Origin: a virus
Lineage: Duplodnaviria > Caudoviricetes
Reading direction: 5' to 3' (one strand)
Virus record (IMG/VR): IMGVR_UViG_3300028048_000071
Coordinates: 68,933-132,932 of that record
DNA length: 64,000 bases
A program made the translations under genes and the position numbers. Below the pieces are notes generated by a model. It searched no databases. It saw nothing but the letters and a program-made list of their open reading frames with translations, and was not told where the DNA came from. This document shows positions 784-20,280 of the stretch, piece by piece (position 1 is the stretch's first letter; every line of letters starts with the position of its first letter).

Positions 784-2697
784 ATGTCTGCTAGTAAATA
801 TAAAAATGGAAAAAATAATAGTAATGGAAATAAAGACGATTTATTATCTATAAAGAATGTAATACAAGAAATTGCTCAAGCAGAAATTCAAAAATATGGA
901 CTTCCAACATACAAGGCTGCTATTGTTCAAAAGATAAATGAAGATGGAACTGTTGATGTTTATTTACCTCCAAATCAAGAAAATTTAGTTACTGGCATTT
1001 TAAATAAATGTGGAGAATTATTATTTGTTGGCGATAGTGTAGAATTAGCAACAAAGAACGGTAGTTTAACAAATTGTTGGGTTGCTATTAAACACGGAAC
1101 TATCGTTCAAGGTCAAGCAGAAGAAGTAGAAAATCTTAGTGGAGAAGTTGTAATGAAAGTTAAAAATGGAAGACTTTCAGTTACAGAATTACAAAGAGAC
1201 CCTTCTCTTGGAAGTGCATTTACTATTATTGCTGAAGATATAAATCTTGATGGTATGAATATTGTTTTAAATGGTAGTAGGGGAATTACAATTAGTTCTC
1301 CTTATTTTAATGTGACAAGTCAAGGATATATAACTGCTACCGGAGGTAAAATCGGTGGTTGGGAAATGGGAGATACTAGATTATATAGTGGCTCTGGTTC
1401 AAATTATGTAGCATTAGATAGTGGAACACAAGGAACAAATTATCCTATTTGGGCTGGAAATGAAAATCCAGCAAATGCTCCTTTTAGTGTAACTAGGGGA
1501 GGAACTATAAAAGCTACTAATGGTACTATTGGAAGTTTTACATTAAATACTAATAGATTATATAGTGGTTCTGGAAACACAACTGCTGGTATTGGAGTAT
1601 ATGGAAGCGACCACGCATTTTGGGCTGGAAGTGAAACATCTAGTTCTGCACCATTTAGAGTTGGTCACGGAGGAGGATTAGTTGCTACAAATGCAACCAT
1701 AGAAGGTACTATTAGTGCCTCTACAATAACAGGTTCTACAATTTCAGGTAATACCATATCAGGTGGTTCTATATCTGGTACTACAATAACAGGTACAACC
1801 ATTTCAGGTAATACTATTAGTGGAGGTACAATTTCAGGTACAACTATATCAGGTGGTTCCATTAATATAGGAAATGGAGTATTTAGTGTTAATTCATCTG
1901 GTAGAATGGTTTGTTATAATTCTGGTGGAGGATATTTATCAATGAACGCTGGAACAACCCATCCTTACGCAAGTGGTTTAAATGTTGGTTCGGCTGTTGT
2001 AATAAATGGTACAGAATTATCTAAATCAGATGGAAGATTGCGTTGTTATGGAGATTTTCAGGCTGCAAATTTTTATACTTTAGGACACGTTCAGTGTAAC
2101 GATTATATTGCTGGAAGTGCTATTAATTTATTATCTGGTAATTCAAGTGGTAGTGCATCTGGAGGAGGAATACTGATAAAAACAGGTAATGGACATATAA
2201 CTTTAAACGCCGCAAATGGTGGAGGTAATGTTTATGCTTCAGGTACTGGTGTTTCTAATGCAAAAGTTGTAACGGATAATGGTAGTGCATCTAGTAAGAA
2301 TACAAAAACAAATATTGAAAAATTTGCAAGTAGCGATTATAAAAAAGCTTTAAATTTATTAAGTAATATTGATATTTATTCATATGACTATAAATATGAT
2401 TTATATCAAAATAGACATCAATATGGATTTATTATAGATGAAATAGAAAAAATTGAAGGATATGAAAAATATTTTGATTTTCATTCAGAAAAAGCTGGAG
2501 TATTTGGAGACCACTTAGATTTTTCTATGGGAGAAAAAGATTCTAATCCAGATGATGTTATAGAAGTTAAAGAATATAACAGAGATACATTAGATAAATT
2601 TATGTTAACTTGTATGAAGGCTATGCAAGATAAAATAGATAAACAAGAAGAAGAAATAAAAGAATTAAAAGAAATAATTAAAAATATAATTGTTTAG
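784..2697 (+). CDS. Tail spike/fibre protein with C-terminal intramolecular chaperone (peptidase S74-like)
   Basis: Gly/Ser/Thr-rich beta repeats; SSKNTKTNI...YGFIIDEI motif followed by a terminal coiled coil. Confidence 0.7.
   Translation: MSASKYKNGKNNSNGNKDDLLSIKNVIQEIAQAEIQKYGLPTYKAAIVQKINEDGTVDVYLPPNQENLVTGILNKCGELLFVGDSVELATKNGSLTNCWVAIKHGTIVQGQAEEVENLSGEVVMKVKNGRLSVTELQRDPSLGSAFTIIAEDINLDGMNIVLNGSRGITISSPYFNVTSQGYITATGGKIGGWEMGDTRLYSGSGSNYVALDSGTQGTNYPIWAGNENPANAPFSVTRGGTIKATNGTIGSFTLNTNRLYSGSGNTTAGIGVYGSDHAFWAGSETSSSAPFRVGHGGGLVATNATIEGTISASTITGSTISGNTISGGSISGTTITGTTISGNTISGGTISGTTISGGSINIGNGVFSVNSSGRMVCYNSGGGYLSMNAGTTHPYASGLNVGSAVVINGTELSKSDGRLRCYGDFQAANFYTLGHVQCNDYIAGSAINLLSGNSSGSASGGGILIKTGNGHITLNAANGGGNVYASGTGVSNAKVVTDNGSASSKNTKTNIEKFASSDYKKALNLLSNIDIYSYDYKYDLYQNRHQYGFIIDEIEKIEGYEKYFDFHSEKAGVFGDHLDFSMGEKDSNPDDVIEVKEYNRDTLDKFMLTCMKAMQDKIDKQEEEIKELKEIIKNIIV
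1705..1866 (+). repeat. Coding pentapeptide repeat (G[GTN]TI[ST])n
   Basis: GTISASTITGSTISGNTISGGSISGTTITGTTISGNTISGGTISGTTISGGSI; 15-nt periodicity. Confidence 0.85.
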
Positions 2698-2709
2698 GGA
2701 GGTTTTAGT

Positions 2710-2973
2710 ATGGAATTAGCTCAAATTATAACTTTAGTAACATTTATCGTTACTTTAATTTTAGGTTTTGTATCAAAAAAATCTAAATTTATTTCAAACA
2801 ATTTAATACCTGTTCAAAATTTATTAATAGGATTAATTGTTGCTGTTGTTGAATGGATTATAACAAAAGACTTTAATACAGCTATCGCCTTAAGTGGTAT
2901 TATGGCTGGTGGAGCTTATGATATAGTTCATAATATACAAAAAATGAAAATAGAAAATAAGGAGGAAAACTAA
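2710..2973 (+). CDS. Holin
   Basis: 87 aa with 2-3 hydrophobic segments and charged C-terminus, upstream of endolysin. Confidence 0.8.
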   Translation: MELAQIITLVTFIVTLILGFVSKKSKFISNNLIPVQNLLIGLIVAVVEWIITKDFNTAIALSGIMAGGAYDIVHNIQKMKIENKEEN

Positions 2974-2975
2974 TT

Positions 2976-3107
2976 ATGATAGATGAAATCAATGAAACTG
3001 TATTAGTTGAACAAGAAGGAGATAAAGCTCCTGAAAGAGATAAAGATTTTGGTCTTTATGATGAAAACGGAGAAATTATAAAAGAAGAAGAAAATACCGA
3101 AGAATAA
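2976..3107 (+). CDS. Small acidic protein (43 aa, not in the ORF track)
   Basis: AAGGAGG SD then [43 protein letters not shown]; fills the holin-endolysin gap. Confidence 0.6.
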
Positions 3108-3120
3108 GGAGGAATGTAAA

Positions 3121-4245
3121 ATGGCAAAAGTATTTGGTATTGACATAAGCACTTGGCAAAGAGGTTATCCTTACGCTGGAGCTACCATAGAAGGAGTTAA
3201 ATTTGCTATTTTAAGAGCTGGTTATAGTCAAACAAAAGACAACCAATTTGAAACTCATTATGCAAATGCAAAAGCTCAAGGTTGGGGCGTTGGAGCATAT
3301 TGGTATATGTATGCTACATCAGTTGCTGGAGCACAAGCAGAAGCAAGAGCATTTTTAAGAGCTATTGCTGGAAAACAATTTGAATATCCTATTTATCTTG
3401 ATATAGAAGATTCGAGCGTTTCAAATAATACATCTAAAGCAACTAGAGATGCAATGATAAGAGCATTTGGAGAAATAATTGAATCTGCAGGATATTATTT
3501 TGGTGTTTATACTAATAAATATTGGTATTCAAGTTTAATTAGTGGTTCTGAATTAAATAAAAAATATGATTGGTGGATTGCTCAATGGTCAACTGGAGCT
3601 CCAACTGGAGTTAATTATGGATTATGGCAATTTGGTGGAGAAACAAATTATCAAAGAAGCAATAAAGTTGCAGGAGTAACTACAGACCAAAACTGGGCTG
3701 TTAAAGATTATCCAGCAATTATGAAACAATTAGGATTAAATGGATTCCCTAAATCAGGAGGAAATACACCTGCACCACAACCAACACCATCAACTAAATC
3801 AGTAGATGAATTAGCACGTGAAGTAATTTCTGGTAAATGGGGTAATGGTTCTGATAGAAAGAATAGATTAACTGCTGCTGGATATGATTATAATGCAGTA
3901 CAAAATAGGGTTAATGAAATTTTAGGAACAGGTTCAGCTCCTGCTAAAAAATCTAATGATGAGATAGCTAATGAGGTTATAGCAGGTAAATGGGGTAATG
4001 GAAATGAAAGAAAAGCTCGTTTAACTGCTGCAGGATATGATTATAATACTATTCAAGGTTTAGTTAATCAAAAACTTAATGGTGGTTCAAGTTCTAATGT
4101 TATAAAATATACTGTAAAATCTGGAGATACATTATCTGGAATTGCAGCAAAATATGGAACTACATATCAAAAAATAGCTGCTGATAATGGAATTGCTAAC
4201 CCTAATAAAATCTATCCAGGACAAGTTTTAACAATAAAAAAGTAA
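3121..4245 (+). CDS. Endolysin: GH25 muramidase + 2 Cpl-7 (CW_7) repeats + LysM
   Basis: GIDISTWQ and YLDIED; twice [20 protein letters not shown]; [13 protein letters not shown]. Confidence 0.95.
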
Positions 4246-4251
4246 TTTTTA

Positions 4252-4285
4252 TAAAGAGATGGCTAAATAAGGTCATCTCTTTAAT
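4252..4285 (+). terminator. Hairpin after endolysin, possible terminator
   Basis: taaagagatggct-aaata-aggtcatctcttta. Confidence 0.5.
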
Positions 4286-4308
4286 AAAGAAAATAAGGAG
4301 GATAATAT

Positions 4309-4674
4309 ATGGCTATTTTAAGAAAGAAAAAAGATAAAAATAAAAAAATAGAAATAGAAAAAGTAGAGATTAAAGAGAATGAAGAAATTAAAGAAGAAAA
4401 GAAAATGTTGGTTGATGATAGCACAACAAATGGAGAAAAAACAAAGGTCGAAGAAATTAAGACAACAGGGGAAGAAGAAATTAAACCTAGAAAAGTATCT
4501 TTAAAGAAAGGTTCAAAAGTTATAGTAAATGGTAGATGTTTTGGGGCATCATCATTAGAATGTCCTTTGAAAACTGTAAGAAATCACGAGACAAAGATAC
4601 TTGATGTAGATAAGGATAATAATTCAATTTTAATAGATGAAGGTTGGATTAGTATAGATAATTTAGTTAAATAA
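4309..4674 (+). CDS. Hypothetical protein
   Basis: ORF with AGGAGG SD. Confidence 0.7.
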   Translation: MAILRKKKDKNKKIEIEKVEIKENEEIKEEKKMLVDDSTTNGEKTKVEEIKTTGEEEIKPRKVSLKKGSKVIVNGRCFGASSLECPLKTVRNHETKILDVDKDNNSILIDEGWISIDNLVK

Positions 4675-4722
4675 AAAAAGGGAGTTTGGTTTTTAATATA
4701 GATTAAGAAAAGGAGGGAAAAT

Positions 4723-5382
4723 ATGGCTAAGCAAACAATAAATAATCTTGAATCTGCGGCAACTGTTAGAAGCAAGATTAATAGTAACTTTACAGAACTA
4801 TATGACCAAAAAGCTGATAAAAATCACGCATATACAGATTCAAGTTATGGTGCTGCATCAAACGAATTATTTGGTCACGTAAAAATAAATGTTGCTAATG
4901 GCTTAAATGTTAGCGATGGTGTAGTAAGTTTAGCTCTTGCAACGACTACCGGTGCTGGTGCGGTGCAATTAGCTGATTCTCTTACTTCAAATGACCCAAC
5001 AAAAGCATTAAGTGCTGCACAAGGGAAAATTTTAAATGATACTTTAACATCGTTAGACGAAAATACTCCTCCAAAAAATCACGCAGTTGACAATGGTGAT
5101 TATGGACTTGCAACAAGTTCTTTATATGGACATTTAAGAGTTACATCTGGAAATGGATTAACTTTAAACGACGGGACTTTATCACTAAATGCCGCAACTA
5201 CAAGTGCTGCCGGTGCAGTACAATTGGAGGATTCATTAGAATCTCAATCTACTACTAAAGCATTAACTGCTAATATGGGATATTATTTGAATAAACATAA
5301 AGCAGAAGCTTTTAGTGGAACAACAGTGCCAAGTAATAATCTTGGTAGTGATGGAGATATATACTTTTTATTAGAAAATTAA
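4723..5382 (+). CDS. Tail fibre protein with duplicated fibre repeat
   Basis: Two copies of NHA...YG.A....GH...ATT..AGAVQL.DSL.S...KAL. Confidence 0.75.
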   Translation: MAKQTINNLESAATVRSKINSNFTELYDQKADKNHAYTDSSYGAASNELFGHVKINVANGLNVSDGVVSLALATTTGAGAVQLADSLTSNDPTKALSAAQGKILNDTLTSLDENTPPKNHAVDNGDYGLATSSLYGHLRVTSGNGLTLNDGTLSLNAATTSAAGAVQLEDSLESQSTTKALTANMGYYLNKHKAEAFSGTTVPSNNLGSDGDIYFLLEN

Positions 5383-9732: not shown

Positions 9733-10836
9733 ATGCAACTATTAAGTACATTAAATAGTCTTGATAATGTTGCTGATGGTTCTACAAGAAAGCTTCTTAA
9801 AACCGCCACTTCAAGCGGTTCTGGGAATGCAGTAACCGCAGTTAGCATATCAGGCGACACTTTAACTTATACATTAGGTTCATCGTTTTCATTGAGTAAT
9901 CATACTCACGATGCAGCCACAACGTCTGCAGCTGGTTTTTTATCAGCCGCAGACAAAAAGAAATTAGATGCAACTTCAGGTTATTATGGAACTTGTAGTA
10001 CAGCAAAAGGGACTGCCGCAAAAGTTGTTGATTGTAGTAATTATGTTTTAGCAACTGGTGCAGTTATTTATGTCAAATTTACCAACGCCAATGAGTATAA
10101 TGGTACTGCGACATTAAATGTTAATGGTACTGGAGCAAAAGATATTGCTAGAGTAGGTACAACAAAAACAACCAGATATTATTGGAGTGCAGGAGAAGTA
10201 GTCGGTTTTGTATATGATGGTACAAATTATATAATAATTGAAAGAGGAACTGCCTCAACTACTTATTATGGTGTTACAAAATTAATAACAACCGCAACAA
10301 ATACATCTGAGGCTTTGGCGTTAACTCCAAAAGCATTAAATAATTTTGCACAAAATATGATTGCTAATTATGCAGTATATTCATCTTCTTCTACCTATAA
10401 TGTAGGAGATAGAGTTAGATATAGTTATAATACATATGAATGTATAGTGGCTATTTCAACAGCAGAAGCGTGGACTGCAGCTCATTGGAAGGCTTTAGAC
10501 CCTTTACAAACACAGATAGATGAAAAATCTGAGGTTTCTATAAGTAGGAATTTAACTTCTGGAGAAAAAATAGGTACTATAACTATAGATGGAACAGCAA
10601 CTGATTTATATGCTCCTGCTACAGGTAGTGTTAATACGTCTTTGGCTAGTCCACAACAAACATATTATTTAACAGGAGTTCAAACAACTGCTGCTGGGCA
10701 AGGTAATTTATATAATAGTTATTTGTCTAGTACATATACAGGAATAAAATATGTAACTTCTACTTCTCAAGAAGGTGGAAGTTTATATGTAGACGACAGA
10801 GAAGTCGTTACAGGATTATATTATGAAATTTCATAA
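9733..10836 (+). CDS. Tail fibre protein
   Basis: ATLNVNGTGAK, YDGTNY and a CBM5/12-like YNVGDRV motif. Confidence 0.75.
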   Translation: MQLLSTLNSLDNVADGSTRKLLKTATSSGSGNAVTAVSISGDTLTYTLGSSFSLSNHTHDAATTSAAGFLSAADKKKLDATSGYYGTCSTAKGTAAKVVDCSNYVLATGAVIYVKFTNANEYNGTATLNVNGTGAKDIARVGTTKTTRYYWSAGEVVGFVYDGTNYIIIERGTASTTYYGVTKLITTATNTSEALALTPKALNNFAQNMIANYAVYSSSSTYNVGDRVRYSYNTYECIVAISTAEAWTAAHWKALDPLQTQIDEKSEVSISRNLTSGEKIGTITIDGTATDLYAPATGSVNTSLASPQQTYYLTGVQTTAAGQGNLYNSYLSSTYTGIKYVTSTSQEGGSLYVDDREVVTGLYYEIS

Positions 10837-10860
10837 AATAAAAGAAAGGAGAGATAATTA

Positions 10861-13095
10861 ATGGCTACAGTTAAGTTTTATAATGATAAAGAAAAAACTC
10901 AACAAGTATATCCAGAAATTGACCCAGATGGAAATTATCCTGGTGTCACAGTTGGACTTGCCAATAACCTTGTTTCACCAGACGGTATAAATGATATAGA
11001 TACTTGGCAATATCGTTCAACTGGTGGAGAACTTGATATTACTGATGGATATGCAACATTAAAGAAACTTATTGGTACAACTGAATCTTCAACTATAGAA
11101 GAAAGTCTAACACATAACTTAATTACAACTGGTGTAACTTCTGTAACTGTTGATACAAGTACATTTAAAAGTCAAATAAGTACAAGTGGAACATATAATT
11201 TTATATATACTCCAACAATTACTTATTCATCTGCTTTAGTATATTCATTAAATAAAAGCACTTTTGCTAATTATGTAAGTCAAGCAACTGGAACATATAC
11301 ATTTACTTATACTGCTGTTGTTTCACCAGTAGATACATCTAGTGTTATACAAACTTTTACACAATCAACATTTGTTAACAAAGTAAATGAAACACCAGAT
11401 ACTTATACATTTACATATAATGGTTCAAATTGGCAATTAGATGGAACAAACGTAACAATGAGTCAATATGGTATTACAACAAAAGGAACTGAAACAAGTG
11501 GAACAACAATTACTGTTTATTATACAAGTAATTCTTGGTATTACAATAATGCCTCAATTTCTATGAGTAATTATGGTATTTCAACAACTGGCTCTGAATC
11601 TGTTGGAGACACAATTGCTATATCTTATACATCTAATGACTGGATGTTAAATAACACTGCAATAACACTTGCTGATTACGGAATTGTAATTACAGGAGGA
11701 ACTGCAGCAATTGACGATAATATTCAAATAATATTTATTGCTGAACAAGTAGGTGTAATTCAAACTGCAAATCCAACTGGATTATATAGTGTTGGAATGA
11801 ACCAATTTAATAAAGATGGTTCTCAAATATTTAGAAATTATACATTAAATTCATCTGGTGGAATAAGTGCGGCAACTGGATATTATGTAATTTATTTTAA
11901 ATGTATAGGAGGAGAAACTTATACTATTTATAATGAAACACCTTCATCTACTGTTAGAGTTGGTTATAGTGCAACTATCCCAACTACATCAAGCACTGTT
12001 ACATTATTAAGTACAGTTTCATCATCTGAATGGGCTGATGTTCTAGTTAATGACTCATATAAATCACACTATTATCCAAATAATCCTGGATATTTAGTTG
12101 TTGCGACAAGTGACATTGAAAATTTATGTTGTCATTTAACTTGGGAAGCAGTAAAGGATGATGTATATGAATCTTATTTTAATTATACATTACCTATTCC
12201 ATACACTGATAAAAATGGAGATGTAATAACAACTTATGGTTTAGTAAACTTAGATGATGGTACTCAATATTATGATGAAATAAATTTTGAAGACCTTAAA
12301 TGGTATAAGAGAACAACTAGAATTGAATATAGTGCTGAAAACTTGGCAACTGTTCAAGCATTAGGTGTTCCATATTTATATGATGCAAATTGGATTTATT
12401 ATGGTGTTAATACAGTTGAATATAACTTAGAAGACGTTTCTTATTCATATGAAATATCAAACTATGGTACTGAAGAGTTTATTAACTCTGCATTGCCATT
12501 AACTGCAACAATATTCTATCAAGAAAACTTAAGAGATAAAATAAGATTCTCTATGGAAGTTATTGATAATAAAGTTGAGAAAATTGATAGTGCTTCTACT
12601 TATACAAAATATTCAAGTGCAAAAGCATCTTATAACCTAGATAAAGCATTAAGACATATACTTGGTCTTGATGTAGATACATTCTCAACAAGCAGCACTT
12701 ATGCTGTTGGTGATTATGTTGTATACGATGGTAAATTGTGGAAATGTACCACTGCCGTAACAAGTGCAGGAGCTTGGACTGGTAATGGATTATCTGTTAG
12801 AAGTAATAATAATGGAATATTACTTGATATGGACACAACTAAATTTTTAAAATTCTTAGATTCAGATAGACCTGGAAGTCCTTGTGGAATTCCTGAACTT
12901 TATGCAAATGATGGCGGTACATACCAAATTCATTTAACATATGCAACAACATCAAACGATTATCACTTCGCTAATGCTGCTGAATTAGAAGAACAAACTG
13001 GTCTTGTAGTAAGTAGTGCAACTGGTGGAGTATCATTTAGTTATAATAGTTCTTCTGCAAATTGGGAAGAATCATATTTATTTAAAGCAAATTAA
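10861..13095 (+). CDS. Large tail/receptor-binding protein
   Basis: 744 aa, Thr/Ser/Tyr-rich internal repeats; YAVGDYVVYDGKLWKC (CBM5/12-like). Confidence 0.7.
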   Translation: MATVKFYNDKEKTQQVYPEIDPDGNYPGVTVGLANNLVSPDGINDIDTWQYRSTGGELDITDGYATLKKLIGTTESSTIEESLTHNLITTGVTSVTVDTSTFKSQISTSGTYNFIYTPTITYSSALVYSLNKSTFANYVSQATGTYTFTYTAVVSPVDTSSVIQTFTQSTFVNKVNETPDTYTFTYNGSNWQLDGTNVTMSQYGITTKGTETSGTTITVYYTSNSWYYNNASISMSNYGISTTGSESVGDTIAISYTSNDWMLNNTAITLADYGIVITGGTAAIDDNIQIIFIAEQVGVIQTANPTGLYSVGMNQFNKDGSQIFRNYTLNSSGGISAATGYYVIYFKCIGGETYTIYNETPSSTVRVGYSATIPTTSSTVTLLSTVSSSEWADVLVNDSYKSHYYPNNPGYLVVATSDIENLCCHLTWEAVKDDVYESYFNYTLPIPYTDKNGDVITTYGLVNLDDGTQYYDEINFEDLKWYKRTTRIEYSAENLATVQALGVPYLYDANWIYYGVNTVEYNLEDVSYSYEISNYGTEEFINSALPLTATIFYQENLRDKIRFSMEVIDNKVEKIDSASTYTKYSSAKASYNLDKALRHILGLDVDTFSTSSTYAVGDYVVYDGKLWKCTTAVTSAGAWTGNGLSVRSNNNGILLDMDTTKFLKFLDSDRPGSPCGIPELYANDGGTYQIHLTYATTSNDYHFANAAELEEQTGLVVSSATGGVSFSYNSSSANWEESYLFKAN

Positions 13096-13117
13096 TGAAT
13101 GAAAGGAGAATAATTTT

Positions 13118-13279
13118 ATGTTAGAAATAATTAAATCATTCTTCTCCCCTGTAGGGGGGGGCGAACAAGCTTCGCTTCACAGAATGGAAATATACAAAGG
13201 AAGGAGGATTTGCGTCAAGAGTATAGTAACTCTTCAAGCAATTCCGACTTCAATAGAAAGAGAGGTGAAGAGTATCTAA
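13118..13279 (+). CDS. Leader peptide 1 (53 aa in the present G8 state); phase-variable
   Basis: AAAGGAG SD at 13102, ATG 13118, MLEIIKSFFSPVGGGEQ...VKSI, TAA 13277; crosses the G8 tract. Confidence 0.8.
   Translation: MLEIIKSFFSPVGGGEQASLHRMEIYKGRRICVKSIVTLQAIPTSIEREVKSI
13154..13161 (+). repeat. Poly-G tract 1 (G8)
   Basis: G homopolymer in an AT-rich genome, inside the leader ORF. Confidence 0.95.
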
Positions 13280-13359
13280 AATCTTCTTATGGAAGATTTG
13301 CAGATGGAAGCAACGCTTCTGTCTTAATCTCTTCATCTTTCGCAAGTGAAAATATCGTA

Positions 13360-13368
13360 GGGGGGGGG
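13360..13368 (+). repeat. Poly-G tract 2 (G9)
   Basis: Direct reading. Confidence 0.95.
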
Positions 13369-13494
13369 CAGCTACGCTCGAATAATTATTCAGCAAGCAG
13401 TCGCTCTTATAAAGGAGGTGAAGGCAATTACGCTAGCTTAATGTCTAGTGATTTTGCCGGAACCGAGACAATGTTAAACCCTGACCGCATAGTC

Positions 13495-13503
13495 GGGGGG
13501 GGG
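13495..13503 (+). repeat. Poly-G tract 3 (G9)
   Basis: Direct reading. Confidence 0.95.
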
Positions 13504-13650
13504 CGAAATCCATTTGGATTCGTCTTCAAAGAAAGGGGGCAAGCCACTATTTAGACTTGCCTCTTATACACGAAATGATTTCTCTTTCAAGAAGGGAGGT
13601 GCAGGCTTAACAGTCTGTACTCCTTTTTATTATGAAGGAGGTGTGTGTTA

Positions 13651-14034
13651 ATGCAAATTAATAAAGACCTTATTATTAGTGGAACTAATATGACTTTAGG
13701 CGATACAGCCTATAAAGATATATATTCAACAACTGAAACCAAGACTAATAAGGTTTGGATTGATGGTCGTACTATATATAGAAAGGTTATTACTGGAAAT
13801 TTATCTCAGGCACAATGGAATCACGGAATAACTTTTGATACTATTGTTTCTATAGAAGGTGTTTTTATAAATACTAATTCTGGTAATACATTTAATATAC
13901 CTAGTACAAGACCTGATTTTCCTGATTATCAAGTTGGTGTATTTGTGAATAATACATTTATAACTTTAGAACGTGCTACTGGTGCTCAACGTGCGGATAT
14001 GAGTTTTTATGTAGTTTTAGAATATGTGAAATAA
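13651..14034 (+). CDS. Variable fibre-tip/receptor-binding cassette 1
   Basis: MQINKDL start; YSTTETKTNKVWIDGRTIYRK fibre C-terminal motif. Confidence 0.75.
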   Translation: MQINKDLIISGTNMTLGDTAYKDIYSTTETKTNKVWIDGRTIYRKVITGNLSQAQWNHGITFDTIVSIEGVFINTNSGNTFNIPSTRPDFPDYQVGVFVNNTFITLERATGAQRADMSFYVVLEYVK

Positions 14035-14063
14035 CACACACAACAGGCTAACAGCCTAACATT

Positions 14064-14471
14064 ATGGCTAAATTTACAATTAATAAAGACTTCTTTGTAG
14101 GTGATACAAATTATTCTTTAGAGGATATTCCTTTTGGAGTAGAACCCGAAGTCCCATCTAATCAAAATTATTTTAAATTTGGGAATATGATGATTTGTTG
14201 GGGTTGGAGAAACGTAACTTTAAACTGGAATGGGAATGGAGCTTATGCTGATTTTAATTTAGCAAACGATGGAACTCCATATAAAGATACTGCATATAGA
14301 ATTGTTGGGAGTTATGCTGGAAGCACAGCTTATTATGCAGGAAACTGGTGCTGGTTTGAAAGCAAAGGGACGACAAGTGCAAGAGTAAATTGCTGGTGTG
14401 AACAAGCTAATAAACCAACATCTATTATTATAGGTTTTATAGCCATTGGAAGATGGCGTGATGCTGAATAA
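14064..14471 (+). CDS. Cassette 2 (gp53-like fibre C-terminal domain)
   Basis: MAKFTINKDF start; YFKFGNMMICWG...FIAIGRW. Confidence 0.75.
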   Translation: MAKFTINKDFFVGDTNYSLEDIPFGVEPEVPSNQNYFKFGNMMICWGWRNVTLNWNGNGAYADFNLANDGTPYKDTAYRIVGSYAGSTAYYAGNWCWFESKGTTSARVNCWCEQANKPTSIIIGFIAIGRWRDAE

Positions 14472-14507
14472 AAACATTTCGTGATGAGCAAGCCTTTTGG
14501 CGAACTT

Positions 14508-14918
14508 ATGAAGATTAATAAAGATTTAATCGTAGAGGGTACAAATCATACATTAGAAGATATACCTTTTGATATTGATTTATCTGATGTGTATTCTACA
14601 AATGAAACAAAAACAAATAAGGTTTGGATAGATAACAGACCTATATATAGAAGAGTCGTTACCGGTACAGTTACCGCTGCAGGTCAAGGACAAACTGTAA
14701 CCACTATAAGTAATATAAGACAAATCTTGACTATAAGAGGAGTTATGTATTCTAATTATGGTCAATGGTGGAATATTCCTAATTATCACGGAGAAGCAGG
14801 ATATGTAAATTCCATATACTGCGATGCAAATGGAAGAGTCAATTTAGGAGTTGGGAACTTTTATAGTGCCGGTAAACCTTTTATAATTATTTTAGAGTAT
14901 ACAAAATCTACTGACTAA
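14508..14918 (+). CDS. Cassette 3 (paralogue of cassette 1)
   Basis: MKINKDL start chosen by paralogy; YSTNETKTNKVWIDNRPIYRR...LEYTK. Confidence 0.75.
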   Translation: MKINKDLIVEGTNHTLEDIPFDIDLSDVYSTNETKTNKVWIDNRPIYRRVVTGTVTAAGQGQTVTTISNIRQILTIRGVMYSNYGQWWNIPNYHGEAGYVNSIYCDANGRVNLGVGNFYSAGKPFIIILEYTKSTD

Positions 14919-14954
14919 CATTGTCTGAACGGCAAAAAAAATAATGCCGATTCT

Positions 14955-15377
14955 ATGAAAATAAACAAAGACTTAATTATTAGTGATACAAATTATACTT
15001 TAGGAGATGTTGCTGATTTTATATCAAATAAAATAGAAATTAAAGAGCTTGCTTCTACAACAGGAAGTGGCGAAAACATTACAATAGATTTGACCGATAG
15101 TTATAAAAATTATGACTTTTTATTAGTTCAATGGAGTCCATATTCTTTATATGGGAATATTGATTTTTATATTATAGATACTGCTACAATTTTATCTACA
15201 CAATATGGAAATTATCCTTATGAAACCGGACACCTTCAAACAACATCAGTATGGTCAAATGTCGTATTTGGCTTTTCATCAACAACTAGATTTATAGCTA
15301 AATGTGCAAATACAGGAACTTGGGGAAAAGGTTCTTTTAAAATAATTTCTATTAAAGGAATAAAATTACCTCACTAA
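14955..15377 (+). CDS. Cassette 4
   Basis: MKINKDL start; IDLTDSYKNYDFL...IKGIK. Confidence 0.7.
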   Translation: MKINKDLIISDTNYTLGDVADFISNKIEIKELASTTGSGENITIDLTDSYKNYDFLLVQWSPYSLYGNIDFYIIDTATILSTQYGNYPYETGHLQTTSVWSNVVFGFSSTTRFIAKCANTGTWGKGSFKIISIKGIKLPH

Positions 15378-15422
15378 TCACATAATAGAGCGACCGCTCG
15401 TAAATGAGCAAAAGCGAATTAA

Positions 15423-15800
15423 ATGATTATAAACACAGATTTAATCTACCCTATCGGTAGTATATATTTAAGCGTCAACGCAACCAATCCGTCAAAGTAT
15501 TTTGGCGGAGCTTGGGAGCAAATTACATCAGACGCATATTTAAAGATAGTAACTCAAAATGCTGGTTCTTTAGGTGGAACCAGTGTAGACCACAAGATAC
15601 CTATTGAAAGTATGCCTAGTCACGACCACGGTGTGTACGGAGCATTAACTGGAGAAAATAAACCTATTACCAATACTGGTAATGATTGGGGAGTTAATAC
15701 AACACACGGATGGACTACAAATGCCATTTCAAAGACTGGCGGTGGACAGGCTTACTATCCTTATTACTATGGCGTTTATGTTTGGAAAAGAACTGCTTAA
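15423..15800 (+). CDS. Cassette 5 (YPxGSIY...WKRTA family)
   Basis: YPIGSIYLSVNATNPS...MPSHDH...VYVWKRTA. Confidence 0.8.
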   Translation: MIINTDLIYPIGSIYLSVNATNPSKYFGGAWEQITSDAYLKIVTQNAGSLGGTSVDHKIPIESMPSHDHGVYGALTGENKPITNTGNDWGVNTTHGWTTNAISKTGGGQAYYPYYYGVYVWKRTA

Positions 15801-15843
15801 ATATACTCTCTTATGATGTTTTGAAGATTTAGATACAAATCTT

Positions 15844-16233
15844 ATGATTATAAATACAAATATGTTGTTAGCAGCCTATCCTGTAGGTTCGCTATATTTA
15901 ACAACAAATGAAATAAACCCAGGAACCTTATTTGGTGGAACCTGGGAAAAATTGACTGGGGATGCTTATCTTAAAATAGTGACAAGTAATCCTGGTCAAT
16001 ATGATGGTACGTCAGACCAACATAAAATACCTATCAATAGTATGCCTTCTCACAGACACGGTAATAGAGTTACTTTAAATATGTCTCAAGGTGCTGGTCA
16101 AGATAGAAGCCTTGTAGTTGGTGGAGGTCAAGTATGGAATACTGCGGACAATTATCAAAATCAATTTGTTGGTGGTGGACAACCTTATTATCCATATTAT
16201 TATGGTATTTATGTTTGGAGACGTACAGCATAA
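15844..16233 (+). CDS. Cassette 6 (YPxGS...WRRTA family); predicted ON in this genotype
   Basis: YPVGSLYL...MPSHRH...IYVWRRTA. Confidence 0.8.
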   Translation: MIINTNMLLAAYPVGSLYLTTNEINPGTLFGGTWEKLTGDAYLKIVTSNPGQYDGTSDQHKIPINSMPSHRHGNRVTLNMSQGAGQDRSLVVGGGQVWNTADNYQNQFVGGGQPYYPYYYGIYVWRRTA

Positions 16234-16261
16234 TCGGAATTGCTTAATGCAATAAAACTTT

Positions 16262-16435
16262 ATGAAAAATATTTTATTAAATAAAATCCTTCACATCGGG
16301 GGGGGGCAGAAATGTCTGCTCTTCACAAGAAAGGAGGGTTGGCTATTATTTTGTAACGTCAACTCTTCAAGGAATGGAGGTGGCAGACATTTAATATCTG
16401 CTATCTCTTGTGGAGGTGTAATCTTATGCAAATAA
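16262..16435 (+). CDS. Leader peptide 2 (57 aa in the present G9 state); phase-variable
   Basis: ATG 16262, MKNILLNKILHIGGGQK..., TAA 16433 overlapping the start of cassette 7; no SD of its own. Confidence 0.75.
   Translation: MKNILLNKILHIGGGQKCLLFTRKEGWLLFCNVNSSRNGGGRHLISAISCGGVILCK
16298..16306 (+). repeat. Poly-G tract 4 (G9)
   Basis: Direct reading. Confidence 0.95.
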
Positions 16436-16818
16436 ACGTAGATTTAATATATCCTATAGGTTCTTTATATTTAACAACGTCTACTGTATCACCAGCAGTT
16501 TTGTTTGGTGGTACTTGGGAACGCATTAAAGGTAGATGTATTGTAGGTGTAGACGAAAATGACACCGACTTTAATACTGTTAGTAAAACCGGCGGTGAAA
16601 AAACACATACATTGACTGTGGATGAAATGCCAGCACACAATCACAATATTCAAGGTGCGATGAATGGTGCTTCTGGAAGTAGTTGGTGTGTTGCTTTAAA
16701 TAGTGATAGAAGCGTAAACTGGTCTATCACTAATGGGTCACAAAATAAAGGTGGTGGACAAGCACATAACAATCTACAACCTTATTACACTGCTTATATA
16801 TGGCGAAGAACCGCATAA
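16426..16818 (+). CDS. Cassette 7
   Basis: GGAGG SD, MQINVDLIYPIGSLY...WRRTA. Confidence 0.8.
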   Translation: MQINVDLIYPIGSLYLTTSTVSPAVLFGGTWERIKGRCIVGVDENDTDFNTVSKTGGEKTHTLTVDEMPAHNHNIQGAMNGASGSSWCVALNSDRSVNWSITNGSQNKGGGQAHNNLQPYYTAYIWRRTA

Positions 16819-16849
16819 GATTACTTAGATATTAAATTGTCGAATAATT

Positions 16850-17227
16850 ATGAAAATAAACTTAGATTTTATATATCCTGTTGGAAGTATTTATATGAGT
16901 GTTAATGCTACAAATCCAGGAATTTTATTTGGAGGAACTTGGACTCAATTAAAAGATAGGTTCTTACTTGGTGCTGGAAATACATATTCCGCTGGAGATA
17001 CTGGTGGAGAGGCAACTCATACGTTAACTTATAATGAAATGCCTCAACATAGTCACACATTGTATAATGAAAATGCAAGTGGATGGACTTTAAGTAAAGC
17101 ATCTTTAAAAACAGGAACAAATAAAGGATATTCTGGTAATATCCAAATTGGAGATGCTGGAGGTAATCAAGCACATAATAATATGCCTCCATATCTAGTA
17201 GTCTATATGTGGAAAAGAACTGCATAA
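16850..17227 (+). CDS. Cassette 8
   Basis: MKINLDFIYPVGSIY...PPYLVVYMWKRTA. Confidence 0.8.
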   Translation: MKINLDFIYPVGSIYMSVNATNPGILFGGTWTQLKDRFLLGAGNTYSAGDTGGEATHTLTYNEMPQHSHTLYNENASGWTLSKASLKTGTNKGYSGNIQIGDAGGNQAHNNMPPYLVVYMWKRTA

Positions 17228-17273
17228 ATTATTTTGACAAAAAGAGTTGACACTAAAATAATAGTGTTATAAT

Positions 17274-17702
17274 ATGAAAATAAATGAAGATTTAATAATT
17301 AATGGAACGGATTTAAATTTAAATGATATAGTACAAAAAATATCGGCACTTGAAAAATATCAAGTAGAATATAATGCTGATTCAATTACTTTGACATTTA
17401 CAAATAAATATCCTTGTATAGCAATTACATATATGTCTCACGCAGGATGGGGATTTGGAGGAAATGAATGGATTTGGAATGCTGATTTAACTAATTCTGT
17501 TCATTTAGGTTATACTAAAGCCTATGTTAATGGTAATGACTTATTATCAAGATTTATGAGTTCTGTGTCAATTAACTATTGTCCAACTGCGGGAGTAGAA
17601 CATACAACTGTAAGAACTACAACCAAGGGTAACTCTGGTAATAGCAATGGACAATCAGTATGTGTTATTTGTTTACCATTAATAACTAATTCAAAAGAAT
17701 AA
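17274..17702 (+). CDS. Cassette 9
   Basis: MKINEDL start; unrelated C-terminal domain. Confidence 0.7.
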   Translation: MKINEDLIINGTDLNLNDIVQKISALEKYQVEYNADSITLTFTNKYPCIAITYMSHAGWGFGGNEWIWNADLTNSVHLGYTKAYVNGNDLLSRFMSSVSINYCPTAGVEHTTVRTTTKGNSGNSNGQSVCVICLPLITNSKE

Positions 17703-17723
17703 TTATAAGAAATAGAGTAAAAT

Positions 17724-17769
17724 GAAAGGGGAATAACTTAACTAAAATTTTTGTTATTTCCTTTTTTTT
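17724..17769 (+). terminator. Intrinsic terminator closing the tail operon
   Basis: aaggggaataac...gttatttccttt followed by a T run. Confidence 0.7.
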
Positions 17770-17774
17770 ACCGC

Positions 17775-17803
17775 TTGACATTATCTTCTTTTTGTGCTAT
17801 AAT
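17775..17803 (+). promoter_or_regulatory. SigmaA-type promoter
   Basis: TTGACA-N17-TATAAT with extended TG. Confidence 0.85.
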
Positions 17804-18039: not shown

Positions 18040-18240
18040 ATGAATAATGATTTTCTAAACGATGATATTAAAGATGCTCTTATTGAAAGAGATGGATTTA
18101 GACAGCAAGTTGAAGATTTAACTAAAATATTAAAAGAAATTCATCTTTATTTGGTGGGGAGATTTAATGAGACTCAAGATACAAAATATTTAGATGACTT
18201 AATTAAATTCCAAGAAATGTGTGGTGACTATTATGGATGA
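18040..18240 (+). CDS. Hypothetical protein
   Basis: ORF with GAGGTG SD. Confidence 0.6.
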   Translation: MNNDFLNDDIKDALIERDGFRQQVEDLTKILKEIHLYLVGRFNETQDTKYLDDLIKFQEMCGDYYG

Positions 18241-19213
18241 TAGTCAATATATTATACAGATAATTAAATCTGACAGAGAGTACCCTTATGGGCAATGTAT
18301 AACACCTAAAGAAATTATTCATAAAGATAGTATTACATCGGAGGATATTATTATTGTAAATGATAAACTTAATAAACTTGATGATATTGACTTATATTTA
18401 GTAGATTTAAAAGTTAAATTTGCACAAATAAATCCTGAAAAATATTATTTAAGTTACTCTGGAGGAAAAGATAGTCACTTGCTTTATTGGTTCATTAAAA
18501 ATTATCTAAAATGCAATGATATTAAAATTATAGGGATAAATACTTATATGGAAAATCCTCAAATCCTAAAAAGAATTATTAAAAATAGTGATAAGGTTTT
18601 ACTGCCTACTCTTAAACCATTTGAGATAAAAGAAAAATACGGAATTCCTTGTTTTAGTAAAGAACAAGATTTCTATATATATTATTATCAGAATGCACTT
18701 AGAAAAGGTAAAAAACCTAGCAAAACAATACAACAGAAAATTGATGGGACTTATGATAAAGGATTTAGTGGTATTTCTAAAAAGGCAAGAGAATATGTAA
18801 AAAGTGGTAATGCTCACAATATAACTCACTTGTGTTGCTATTATTTAAAGAAAAAACCAGCACACGACTTTGAAAAAGAAACTGGTTTAAAGCCTATATT
18901 GGGAATTAGAAGTGAAGAATCTGCTTTAAGAAAAAGACAGTATACAACTTGCTTTTCTAAAAATGGTAAATTCACGCCAATACATAATTTAACAGATGAC
19001 ATTTTAGAAGGAATCATATCTAAATATAATATAGAAGTTCCAGAAATATATAATCATATAAAGAGGACTGGATGTGAAGGTTGTCCTTATGGTAGTTATT
19101 ATCACGAAACAGAAAAAGAACTTGAATTAATGACTCCAGCCAAAAAGAAGTTTGTTTGTGAGTTGTTTAAAGAAAGTTATGAAGTTTTAGGAATTGAGGT
19201 GAAGGAAGAATGA
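18233..19213 (+). CDS. PAPS reductase family (PP-loop) protein
   Basis: SYSGGKDS, CCYYLKKKP, GIRSEES..R, RTGCEGCP. Confidence 0.85.
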   Translation: MDDSQYIIQIIKSDREYPYGQCITPKEIIHKDSITSEDIIIVNDKLNKLDDIDLYLVDLKVKFAQINPEKYYLSYSGGKDSHLLYWFIKNYLKCNDIKIIGINTYMENPQILKRIIKNSDKVLLPTLKPFEIKEKYGIPCFSKEQDFYIYYYQNALRKGKKPSKTIQQKIDGTYDKGFSGISKKAREYVKSGNAHNITHLCCYYLKKKPAHDFEKETGLKPILGIRSEESALRKRQYTTCFSKNGKFTPIHNLTDDILEGIISKYNIEVPEIYNHIKRTGCEGCPYGSYYHETEKELELMTPAKKKFVCELFKESYEVLGIEVKEE

Positions 19214-20280
19214 GTCGTAAAAATATTAACTTTGATGTCAATGCAACAGAGAAGCCCGATAAACACGTTTTAAGGACGATGTGGCGACTTTATCGTCACG
19301 GGTATGCAAACCCTAATGCAACATATAAAGACGCTAGAATGACCGCAGAATTGATTGAGACGGCACGTGAGAAGGTTGCAAAAGCTTTAGGTTGTTATCC
19401 GGATGAAATATTCTTTACAAGTGGAGCATCGGAATCAAATAGTTGGATTCAAGCAAATTTTATTTTGACTGTTGATGATAGGTCGCATCACTCTTTTGAA
19501 AGAATGGTTGGAATTAATCAATATGGTAAAGTAAAGACAATACCTTTAGTTGTTAGTGAAACTGGTGAATGGCTCATTAATGAAGTAAAGGCTAATCCAA
19601 AACAAGAATACTTCCTTGATATGACACAAGGAATTGGTAAAATGAAAATAAATTTACACGATATGCCAAATGTAATTTATGCTAGTGCTTCAGGGCATAA
19701 ATTTGGTGGAATTTTAGGTTGTGGAATACTCTATATAAGACACGATAAACAATCTAAAGTAAGACCATTAATTGTTGGAAGTCAAGAAAAAGGAATTAGA
19801 GGAGGAACTCAAAATGTTCCGGCGATAGTTTGTTTTGGAGAAGCAATAGAAAAAGCGATGAAAGATATTGATAAGAATCAAGATAAAATTAGAAAAGTTA
19901 CAAATTACATATATACTAAAATAAAAACAGGAGATGCTATCCCGGTGGATGACACGCCGTTATTTATATATAAGAGCATACCTGTAGATGTGCGTATGGC
20001 TGAGCCATATACAAATGTTATTAATATTACGTTCAATTATCTTACTGCAACGGCTGCGGTACAGATTTTTGATAAATTAGGTTTCAATATTAGTGCTGGT
20101 AGTGCCTGCAATTCGGAATCAGAAAGACCGTCAGAGGCTTATTTAGCAAGTGGGTACACGGAAGATGAGGCTATGAGGACTATTAGGATTTCAGTAGGTA
20201 AAAACAACACTATAAAAGAAGCCAAGAAATTCATAAAGGCTTTAAAAAAGGTTGTCGCACTTTATGATGAAGAAGATTAG
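19210..20280 (+). CDS. iscS: Cysteine desulfurase (IscS/NifS family)
   Basis: FFTSGASES, SGHKFGG, RGGTQNV, SAGSAC, IRISVG. Confidence 0.85.
   Translation: MSRKNINFDVNATEKPDKHVLRTMWRLYRHGYANPNATYKDARMTAELIETAREKVAKALGCYPDEIFFTSGASESNSWIQANFILTVDDRSHHSFERMVGINQYGKVKTIPLVVSETGEWLINEVKANPKQEYFLDMTQGIGKMKINLHDMPNVIYASASGHKFGGILGCGILYIRHDKQSKVRPLIVGSQEKGIRGGTQNVPAIVCFGEAIEKAMKDIDKNQDKIRKVTNYIYTKIKTGDAIPVDDTPLFIYKSIPVDVRMAEPYTNVINITFNYLTATAAVQIFDKLGFNISAGSACNSESERPSEAYLASGYTEDEAMRTIRISVGKNNTIKEAKKFIKALKKVVALYDEED

Follow-up and report, generated by a model that had tools for sequence, protein, structure and literature searches.

The stretch of DNA analysed here, which we call the window, comprises 64,000 nucleotides (nt) of the phage record IMGVR_UViG_3300028048_000071 in IMG/VR, namely bases 68933-132932 of a record of 132,932 bases that CheckV rates as complete. 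Its G+C content is about 30%, and the phage seems to be a large, uncultured one of the gut type. Within the window lies a tail-fibre operon in which two leader open reading frames (ORFs) containing long runs of G precede a series of small genes. It is the region of the second leader, 16234-17274, that concerns us, since a preliminary description had seen in it a second-tier selector whose leader is itself a target of the first. Sequence comparison strongly supports this two-tier architecture, with leader 2 as a predicted addressed output of leader 1, and the region on balance probably forms the second tier of a selector that acts in translation, needs no recombinase and chooses among alternative tail-fibre tips.

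The fibre operon and its frame tree

The operon is headed by a fibre gene, whose product is presumed to form the shaft to which small tip proteins attach and is 74-92% identical across all relatives that carry the selector system. Behind it come, in order, a leader of 530 nt (leader 1), six cassettes (c1-c6, 13651-16233), a leader of 190 nt (leader 2), three more cassettes (c7-c9, 16426-17702) and a terminator-like hairpin, downstream of which there is a 12/12 promoter match at 17775-17803. Cassettes c5-c8 are stand-alone Gp10_C fibre-tip domains (Pfam, E-values down to 1.7e-29), and the remaining cassettes have an N-terminal peptide of about 20 residues, MKINxDLI..., in common and diverge completely beyond it; for this reason the nine are taken to be alternative tips with a common docking peptide. 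For the head of c9 a protein-atlas look-up gave BppL_N as a weak lead. The genes, leaders and tracts on which the argument turns are as follows.

10861-13095, plus strand: tail fibre gene, 744 amino acids (ORF; Pfam CBM_5_12), head of the operon
13118-13651, plus strand: leader 1 ORF, from ATG 13118, with tracts 1-3 in register and seven terminal stops
13154-13161, plus strand: tract 1, G8, in leader 1
13360-13368, plus strand: tract 2, G9, in leader 1
13495-13503, plus strand: tract 3, G9, in leader 1
16262-16435, plus strand: leader 2 ORF, 57 codons as assembled, carrying tract 4; its stops are the same in the related contigs L008, L020 and L025
16298-16306, plus strand: tract 4, G9, in leader 2
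16426-16818, plus strand: cassette 7, Gp10_C-type tip, 130 amino acids (Pfam PF21939, E-value 1.7e-29; PHROGs tail and tail-fibre families), with its own Shine-Dalgarno sequence (SD)
16850-17227, plus strand: cassette 8, Gp10_C-type tip, 125 amino acids (Pfam PF21939, E-value 3.1e-24)
17274-17702, plus strand: cassette 9, 142 amino acids, sharing with other cassettes only the N-terminal MKINxDLI...; weak jelly-roll match
17724-17769, plus strand: terminator-like hairpin followed by U8, closing the fibre/leader/cassette operon

The window contains only four G runs of at least seven, all inside the two leaders, and the same four leader tracts are the only runs of at least eight in the whole genome of 132,932 bases. 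At tract 1, a length of G7 or G10 leads to the stop TAG 13224, G8 leads to the stop at 13277 and G9 reads on; at tract 2 the outcomes are a stop at 13383, a stop at 13439 or reading on; and at tract 3 they are stops at 13552, 13608 and 13649, the last of which overlaps the start of c1 as TAATG 13649-13653. The stop count of leader 1 (2 + 2 + 3 = 7) matches six cassettes plus leader 2. At tract 4, G9 leads to TAA 16433-16435, G8 or G11 to TAA 16392-16394 and G7 or G10 to TAA 16354-16356, and these stops go with c7 (16433), c8 (16392) and c9 (16354), the ATG of c7 at 16426 lying 7 nt upstream of the G9-frame stop. The claim that leader 2 repeats the design of leader 1 for three genes is thereby borne out, in that the three stops behind tract 4 are tied to c7, c8 and c9.

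Between the window and L011, a contig of the second lineage described below, the read-through leader 1 peptide has 22% protein identity against 53% identity of the DNA. The peptide is less conserved than the DNA, and the leader ORF would matter as a track for ribosomes and not as a protein.

Leader 1 also holds two features that we record in their own right. The segment 13280-13327 is a 48-nt insertion absent from L008, L020 and L021, and its GAAGA / TCTTC / GAAGA segments could form alternative hairpins around the stop at 13277. Just 5' of c1, the segment 13598-13640 can form a pair of hairpins that overlap each other, both with a T-rich run behind them and both scoring as terminator-like, and CTCCTT 13620-13625 is able to pair with the SD at 13594-13600 or with the SD of c1 at 13635-13640; these hairpins may be a transcription attenuator or a mask of the c1 start.

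Address helices and proposed split start sites

The pairings of the second tier, and the one that links it to the first, involve the following elements.

13199-13247, plus strand: module for the first output of leader 1 and address of leader 2, consisting of SD, outer arm, hairpin and inner arm
16234-16261, plus strand: leader-2 spacer, with inner arm TCGGAATTGCTT at 16234-16245, outer arm ATGCAA at 16247-16252 and 9 nt to ATG 16262; without SD
16331-16368, plus strand: c9 module, with SD AGGAGGG at 16332-16338, outer arm at 16343-16352, stop at 16354-16356 and inner arm at 16358-16367
16376-16426, plus strand: c8 module and c7 start region, with SD GGAGGTGG at 16376-16383, outer arm at 16386-16399 and inner arm at 16418-16426
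16816-16849, plus strand: spacer 8, with arms at 16816-16824 and 16827-16841 and 8 nt to the ATG; without SD
17228-17273, plus strand: spacer 9, with arms at 17242-17251 and 17255-17264 and 9 nt to the ATG; without SD

That leader 2 lacks an SD, as first described, is plain from its duplex energy with the anti-SD, which is +2.1 kcal/mol against a median of -7.7 kcal/mol for 59 genes of the window; the corresponding values are +0.1 for c8, +0.7 for c9 and -10.6 kcal/mol for c7. Eight of the 11 starts in the array are without an SD (all above -2.6 kcal/mol), and strong SDs are found only at leader 1, c1 and c7, that of c7 lying at 16413-16419, inside the c8 module region and ahead of its ATG at 16426.

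The four inverted pairs that had been proposed for the second tier are all present. The inner helix of c8 joins gtaatctta 16418-16426 to taagattac 16816-16824 (9 base pairs, bp), and its outer helix joins gacatttaatatct 16386-16399 to agatattaaattgtc 16827-16841 (14 bp, one base bulging out of the spacer strand). For c9 the inner helix is formed by gtcaactctt 16358-16367 and aagagttgac 17242-17251, and the outer one by ctattatttt 16343-16352 and aaaataatag 17255-17264, each of 10 bp. Both pairs of helices are nested and end 8-9 nt before the ATG of c8 (16850) or c9 (17274). Measured against 1000 dinucleotide-preserving shuffles of the spacer, the duplex energy with leader 2 is stronger for spacer 8 (z -3.6, p 0.001) and for spacer 9 (z -3.8, p 0.005), and so is that of the leader-2 spacer with leader 1 (z -3.4, p 0.002). 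The longest exact matches, compared with random windows of equal length, give p values of 0.007, 0.027 and <0.001, the 12-bp match of the leader-2 spacer to leader 1 being the one with p<0.001. In a minimum-free-energy (MFE) fold of 16225-17300 the c9 helices form unaided. Since whole-leader pairings from RNAduplex were over-long and noisy, helices were assigned from a listing of exact matches combined with folding of each module.

The tier link is built in the same way, and leader 2 is paired to leader 1 as a cassette is. The first output module begins with the SD GGAAGGAGG at 13199-13207, followed by the outer arm TTGCGT at 13210-13215, a hairpin at 13217-13234 (stem AAGAGU/ACUCUU) whose loop holds the stop TAG 13224-13226 that is used at tract 1 lengths of G7 or G10, and the inner arm AAGCAATTCCGA at 13236-13247. 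The pairing with the leader-2 spacer amounts to 12 + 6 bp, between 13236-13247 and 16234-16245 and between 13210-13215 and 16247-16252. More generally, the best complement of every SD-less spacer is found in the correct leader, beside its own stop and in perfectly nested order: in the first tier the leader-2 spacer points to 13236-13247, c6 to 13272-13300, c5 to 13400-13407, c4 to 13452-13476, c3 to 13569-13577 and c2 to 13641-13650, and in the second c9 points to 16343-16367 and c8 to 16386-16426. Among 22 outputs from three genomes, 21 have their frame-specific stop within the stretch of leader that is paired with their own spacer.

The stops themselves stand in a particular structural setting. 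When ±24 nt around a stop are folded, and a stop is scored as apical if it lies no more than 3 nt from the centre of the apical loop of a hairpin of at least six pairs, 19 of the 22 terminal stops qualify, against 108 of 500 control stop triplets (22%). An SD-like sequence that otherwise has no owner forms the 5' strand of the hairpin at 14/22 terminal stops and at 1/500 controls. In leader 2, the SD strand 16333-16346 pairs locally with 16353-16368, with the stop at 16354 on top, and a second hairpin (16376-16387 / 16397-16408) has the stop 16392-16394 in its loop. Because the address arms overlap these local hairpins, the local fold that hides the SD and the long-range fold that frees it are mutually exclusive.

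In the clean cases the geometry is that of a ribosome-binding site split across a helix, i.e. SD, 4-6 nt, helix on the leader side and helix, 5-7 nt, ATG on the cassette side (4 nt and 7 nt for the c9 module), the distance from helix to ATG becoming 8-9 nt when the exact arms alone are counted. As in the split sites known from phage T4, the SD is missing from its usual place and SD and AUG are far apart, here at eight starts, and the gap is reduced by a structure to about 5-11 nt, here across a loop of 0.4-3 kb. Stop and start adjoin directly for c1 (TAATG 13649-13653) and c7 (ATG 16426, stop 16433), and for the other eight outputs they do so only on the view that the two are brought together by the long-range helix.

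This geometry could by itself support initiation by free 30S subunits, and c1 and c7 have strong SDs of their own, so that the helices and split sites might be real and constitutive, each SD-less cassette being translated at some fixed level, the G runs only tuning amounts and leader 2 being translated at any state of tract 1, without a hierarchy or a choice of one tip out of nine. Such an arrangement, which we consider unlikely, would leave unexplained why the terminal stops equal the outputs in two architectures (7+3 and 7), why the stops sit at the apex of hairpins that hide SDs, why each stop falls inside the span that pairs with one spacer, and why the genome's only long G runs stand in register in an ORF that is not conserved.

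A different possibility is attenuation, in which the leader frame would control a transcription terminator and so gate the transcription of the cassettes. Control of a terminator by a repeat-bearing leader peptide is established for pil1 (PMC3894217), and a hairpin of leader 1 at 13598-13630, shortly ahead of c1, resembles a terminator and is accompanied by a U run. No terminator-like site is found on the plus strand of 16262-17702 or between cassettes, which makes attenuation unlikely for the second tier; serial terminators, moreover, could not pick a distal cassette without transcribing the proximal ones, and the SD-less starts and address helices would be left without explanation. Overall we hold attenuation to be very improbable.

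Spacer 9 (17234-17275) also contains two TTGACA hexamers at promoter-like spacing to AATAAT (11/12) and TAATAT (10/12). As a promoter for c9 the first of these (TTGACA-17-AATAAT, 17234-17262) was rejected, its first hexamer being deleted in L020, and so was the other, from which transcription would start at or after the c9 ATG. The c9 arm GAGTTGAC includes the second TTGACA, and the likeness to a promoter is treated as a probable by-product of that arm.

Relatives, covariation and tract lengths

The two-tier form occurs in three further contigs, L008, L020 and L025. The full system is present in L008 (fibre 92% identical) and L020 (81%), and L025, a 4-kb contig binned with a Clostridia metagenome-assembled genome, carries leader 2, c7 and c8; L021 has leader 1, the contig ending early. 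Across the window, L008, L020 and L025 the tier-2 arms are kept despite differing c7 and c8 proteins. The outer c8 helix of L020 shows a compensatory change from U-A to C-G together with a C-to-U change that gives G.U, and the inner c8 helix alternates between G-C and G.U among the four tier-2 contigs, the tier-2 tally being one compensatory change and three one-sided changes that preserve pairing (G-C or A-U to or from G.U). Similarly, the outer helix of leader 2 has G.U in the window and L025 and G-C in L008 and L020 (outer arm ACGCAA). In spacer 9 of L020, 24 nt of the remainder are deleted and both c9 arms are retained. The arms of c4 and c5 in L020 are unlike those of the window on both strands, and the hairpin of the first stop keeps that stop in its loop in the window, L008, L020 and L021, its stem being AAGAGT/ACTCTT in the first two and CAAGG/CCTTG in the others.

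A second lineage, consisting of L009, L010, L011, L015 and L016 (fibre 74-75% identical), has three tracts, seven stops and exactly seven cassettes, without leader 2, and ordinary SDs precede the genes that follow. The six address helices of this lineage are all perfect, nested and 10-14 bp long, with sequences unrelated to those of the window (p<0.002 for 5/6). Arms that are wholly different yet complementary and nested are the strongest evidence that the pairing itself is under selection. Together with the c4/c5 arms of L020 and the arms of the window, the arms of L011, all of which differ, make three address sets of differing sequence. Because a lineage with seven cassettes has no leader 2, leader 2 is taken to occupy the slot of a seventh cassette, which would make it the seventh output of leader 1.

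In an alignment with leader 1, leader 2 matches the tract-3 module, of which it is a paralogue, and it therefore arose by duplication of the terminal three-output module. This bears on the argument that an independent repeat of the layout speaks against chance: the layout is indeed repeated, but the two copies are related, so that the repetition alone is weaker evidence than had been claimed. Independent support comes instead from the arms of each copy, which match their own targets, and from the wholly different arms of the second lineage. The proposal of a modular, chainable unit of one tract and three outputs holds for the terminal modules and fails for tracts 1 and 2, each of which has two outputs and otherwise reads on. 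That modules can be chained would follow from the one address in leader 1 that points to a second leader.

Cassettes have been exchanged between slots, and even between tiers, with spacers and addresses fixed. The c6 of the window (15844-16233) is 95% identical to the slot-8 cassette of L025 (L025:3587-3976), and L011 and L016 have the same spacers with shuffled cassettes. As side observations on the cassettes, recombination may find its homology in their conserved MxINxD codons at the 5' end and ...WKRTA at the 3' end, and the slot-8 cassette of L020 (L020:16118-16444) runs out of frame past a G6 run at 16385-16390, with its conserved C-terminus in another frame; this could reflect decay to a pseudogene, a mistake in assembly or one more slippery run, of short length.

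Inverted repeats near variable receptor-binding genes, together with cassettes that change slots over evolution and the single tyrosine recombinase encoded in the genome, might also suggest sites of DNA inversion or recombination that rearrange the cassettes in the manner of Gin/Cin or of a shufflon. A flip between a leader arm and a spacer arm would only turn the intervening genes, without joining a leader SD to a cassette start, and in at least eight contigs all cassettes are on one strand with the same order of addresses. No Resolvase-family gene or serine invertase is found in the genome, its sole Phage_integrase-family gene lies about 76 kb away, and the G.U-compatible substitutions in the arms fit RNA pairing and not DNA sites. 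Inversion is hardly credible on this evidence. Alternative C-termini on a constant N-terminus in two orientations were not found in the contigs examined, where all cassettes are complete ORFs with their own ATG, nor does the genome have an RVT_1 match that would indicate a diversity-generating retroelement, template and variable repeats not having been searched for separately.

The tracts vary in length between near-identical genomes, as expected of a contingency locus, with the proviso that a sequencing artefact is possible. The same phage is contained in the Logan assembly of SRR8442993, where contig L111 differs from the window over 3,085 nt solely by one extra G in tract 2. Of the contigs from that assembly (L110 and L111), one ends inside tract 3 and the next begins with tract 3, a break that would fit a branch in the assembly graph from mixed tract lengths in the sample. 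Tract 3 is G8, G9 or G10 among the five contigs of the second lineage, and tract 4 is G9 in L008, G10 in L025 and G10 in L020, where there is a 1-nt deletion just upstream. Read through the frame tree, the assembled state is c6 in the window, c1 in L008, L021 and L011, c2 in L016 and c3 in L010, and that of L020 is the first stop (leader 2) and then c7.

Homopolymer runs of nine or more are known sites of RNA polymerase slippage, and G GGG GGG fits the form of a slippery heptamer. The G runs might accordingly act mainly at the level of RNA, by polymerase slippage or ribosomal frameshifting, and yield a fixed mixture of tips in every infected cell, which would make the device a distributor and not a heritable switch; the wiring of stops to cassettes would serve such a distributor equally well, and it is compatible with selection by DNA tract length. 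As the chief mode of action it is rather unlikely, given that tract lengths in the DNA differ between assemblies of the same phage and between close relatives, and that the assembled states differ between genomes.

Searches for wider distribution found little. A nucleotide search of INPHARED with 10800-17800 gave only short matches to tip domains, a module-specific pattern search of IMG/VR gave no further copies, and a search with 12 Gp10_C cassettes gave 80 loci, of which two had long G or C runs and none this architecture. Pattern searches also brought up three unrelated loci that were discounted as chance matches, namely L013, a 178-kb phage whose G8 runs are of the ordinary kind inside genes, the high-GC L019 and L026 from Flectobacillus. 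In L013 (IMGVR_UViG_3300029928_000001, 178 kb) the minus strand of 11150-11600 has a gene for 190 amino acids preceded by two G8 runs, which lie at the ends of short ORFs or close to them, and this may be another phase-variable locus. L023 (FLNV01000159.1), which has the fibre N-terminus and no tracts, the whole selector being absent, was not used; within its 10001-12500 the fibre is 89% identical over the first 578 residues, breaks off there and is followed by minus-strand genes from about 27 kb further in the window, and it is probably a deletion variant or an assembly mis-join.

A simpler poly-G design was seen in L033 (IMGVR_UViG_3300045988_134186, a 247-kb contig), where 2380-4760 contains four successive tip-like genes, each after a unit of about 85 nt. 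The unit consists of ATG, G9 or G10, CCTCCC, GGAGG and ATG, i.e. a mini-leader reading into an anti-SD/SD hairpin, and a G9 run also lies inside the first Gp10_C gene, at 2385. This looks like an independent ON/OFF switch for each cassette, simpler than the selector of the window.

Directly 3' of the array in the window, 18221-20280 encodes a PAPS-reductase-like (PP-loop) protein and a class-V aminotransferase of the cysteine-desulfurase type, a pair that recalls sulfur-transfer or DNA/RNA-modification modules. Further neighbours of the locus are AAA_24 and primase-helicase genes.

A probable translational selector and known systems

The mechanism by which termination would be turned into initiation is one that we infer, under good constraints, from the arrangement of stops, hairpins and arms. 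Local hairpins would form first, during transcription, and hide all leader SDs. A ribosome translating the leader would melt each hairpin that it crosses and strip the long-range helices of the modules that it reads through, and only in the module where it terminates would the hairpin be opened and the inner arm be left untouched. The freed arms would then pair with the remote spacer, the SD, 4-6 nt ahead of the helix, and the remote AUG, 5-9 nt behind it, would form a split ribosome-binding site, and the terminating 30S subunit, or one nearby, would start on the selected cassette. At a tract 1 length of G7 or G10 the leader ribosome would stop at TAG 13224, and the helix of 12 + 6 bp to 16234-16252 would present the SD-less ATG 16262 of leader 2. 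Tract 4 would then select c7 at G9, by direct stop-start coupling, c8 at G8 or G11 and c9 at G7 or G10, and expression of c7-c9 would be confined to the G7 and G10 states of tract 1. The choice would be heritable yet reversible, because the G runs would slip when the DNA is replicated, and slippage of RNA polymerase may add a mixture within one infection. The whole can be pictured as a hierarchical decision tree in the mRNA, in which four G runs are ternary digits, termination at hairpin apices is the read-out and nested helices of 10-25 bp are the addresses to nine remote starts; for and against this fuller picture the case seems to us evenly poised.

Several points weigh against such a selector. 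The link from termination at a specific stop to initiation at the paired start is deduced from the layout, and with loops of 0.4-3 kb to close, the helices face competition from local folding and from ribosomes translating the cassettes in between; a local hairpin prevails over the c8 helices in the MFE fold of 16225-17300, whereas the c9 helices form. With their own strong SDs, c1 and c7 might be made in every state unless masked, and c5 and c3 have no classical SD before the outer arm, only the G run itself. The tier-2 covariation comes from four closely related contigs with few substitutions. Differences in homopolymer length between assemblies can be sequencing or assembly errors, and slippage of RNA polymerase or ribosomes at the G runs could turn the selector into a distributor of fixed ratio.

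Considering how the locus relates to known systems, the closest in terms of the repeats are the contingency loci of phages. For Fletchervirus phages of Campylobacter, Sorensen et al. are said to have described, in 2021, poly-G tracts that are hypermutable and lie in receptor-binding genes. Contingency loci of T2 and T4 have ON/OFF tracts inside phage genes (bioRxiv 10.1101/2025.10.21.683753). Common to these and to the present locus are slippage-prone homopolymers that give reversible heterogeneity of the population, with host recognition affected in the Campylobacter phages, and the four tracts have the slip-prone length (about seven or more) and the position in or near a coding region that characterise such loci. 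In the phage loci, however, the tract lies inside the switched gene and two of three lengths truncate it, whereas here the tracts are in non-conserved leader ORFs, all three frames would be productive and the tracts are chained into a tree; in place of ON/OFF switching of the gene that bears the repeat, each frame runs to a stop of its own that is linked to a separate cassette.

In the phase-variable pil1 pilus locus of Streptococcus gallolyticus, GCAGA repeats are located in a leader-peptide gene and the target of control is a terminator (Danne et al., 2014, PMC3894217). There as here, a repeat within a leader ORF sets how far the ribosome reaches, and the position of the ribosome on a structured leader decides, or in the present case would decide, the expression of downstream genes for a surface structure. 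The pil1 system has one output, high or low, and acts through an intrinsic terminator between leader and genes, which is missing from tier 2, whereas the present locus uses G runs, three outputs per terminal module and the addressing of remote starts.

For the split sites, the precedent is provided by T4 genes 38 and 25, where a hairpin brings a distant SD to 5 nt and 11 nt, respectively, from the AUG (Nivinskas et al., 1999; Malys and Nivinskas, 2009; PMC3014915). In both cases an SD that is remote in the linear sequence is brought to working distance by RNA structure. The T4 hairpin is single, small, local and constitutive, whereas the loop proposed here is of 0.4-3 kb and holds whole genes with competing AUGs, and its use appears to be gated by the site at which an upstream ORF terminates. 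The compensatory change in L020 and the co-evolved sets of arms would lend indirect support to a split-site function. Multiple outputs and the addressing of remote starts are absent from both the T4 genes and pil1.

Translational coupling by termination-reinitiation, and the long-distance RNA pairing between the coat and replicase genes of MS2, are long-standing examples of ribosomes that, as they move along one ORF, act through RNA structure to govern whether a start further downstream is accessible, which is the principle proposed here. The starts of c1 (TAATG) and c7 (ATG 7 nt before the stop) look like textbook coupling. Known coupling concerns neighbouring or single genes, whereas the starts considered here lie at distances of as much as 3 kb and every frame would have its own partner. 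Mu Gin with the G segment, P1 Cin, the R64 shufflon and diversity-generating retroelements each express one of several receptor-binding variants from a single locus, the same bet-hedging over host range as proposed here; these selectors need a recombinase or a reverse transcriptase and alter the DNA, whereas the present array keeps a single orientation and selection would take place at the level of the mRNA. A multi-way poly-G leader selector was not found in a full-text literature search, whose coverage mostly excluded subscription journals.

If the proposed selector is real, a terminating bacterial ribosome or its 30S subunit would be passed to a start codon kilobases away via a programmed RNA helix, and phase variation would extend beyond the binary, one repeat choosing among three genes and cascaded repeats among nine. 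Gene callers will list all nine tips as expressed and miss the leaders, and the host range of such phages would hang on single-base tract lengths that are noise to assemblers. The design is compact and modular, with fixed addresses and swappable cassettes, and could be reused as a synthetic multi-state switch. For the phages themselves it would mean that receptor-binding proteins can be diversified without invertases or retroelements, through a new mode of ribosome routing in polycistronic mRNA and a new class of host-range bet-hedging.

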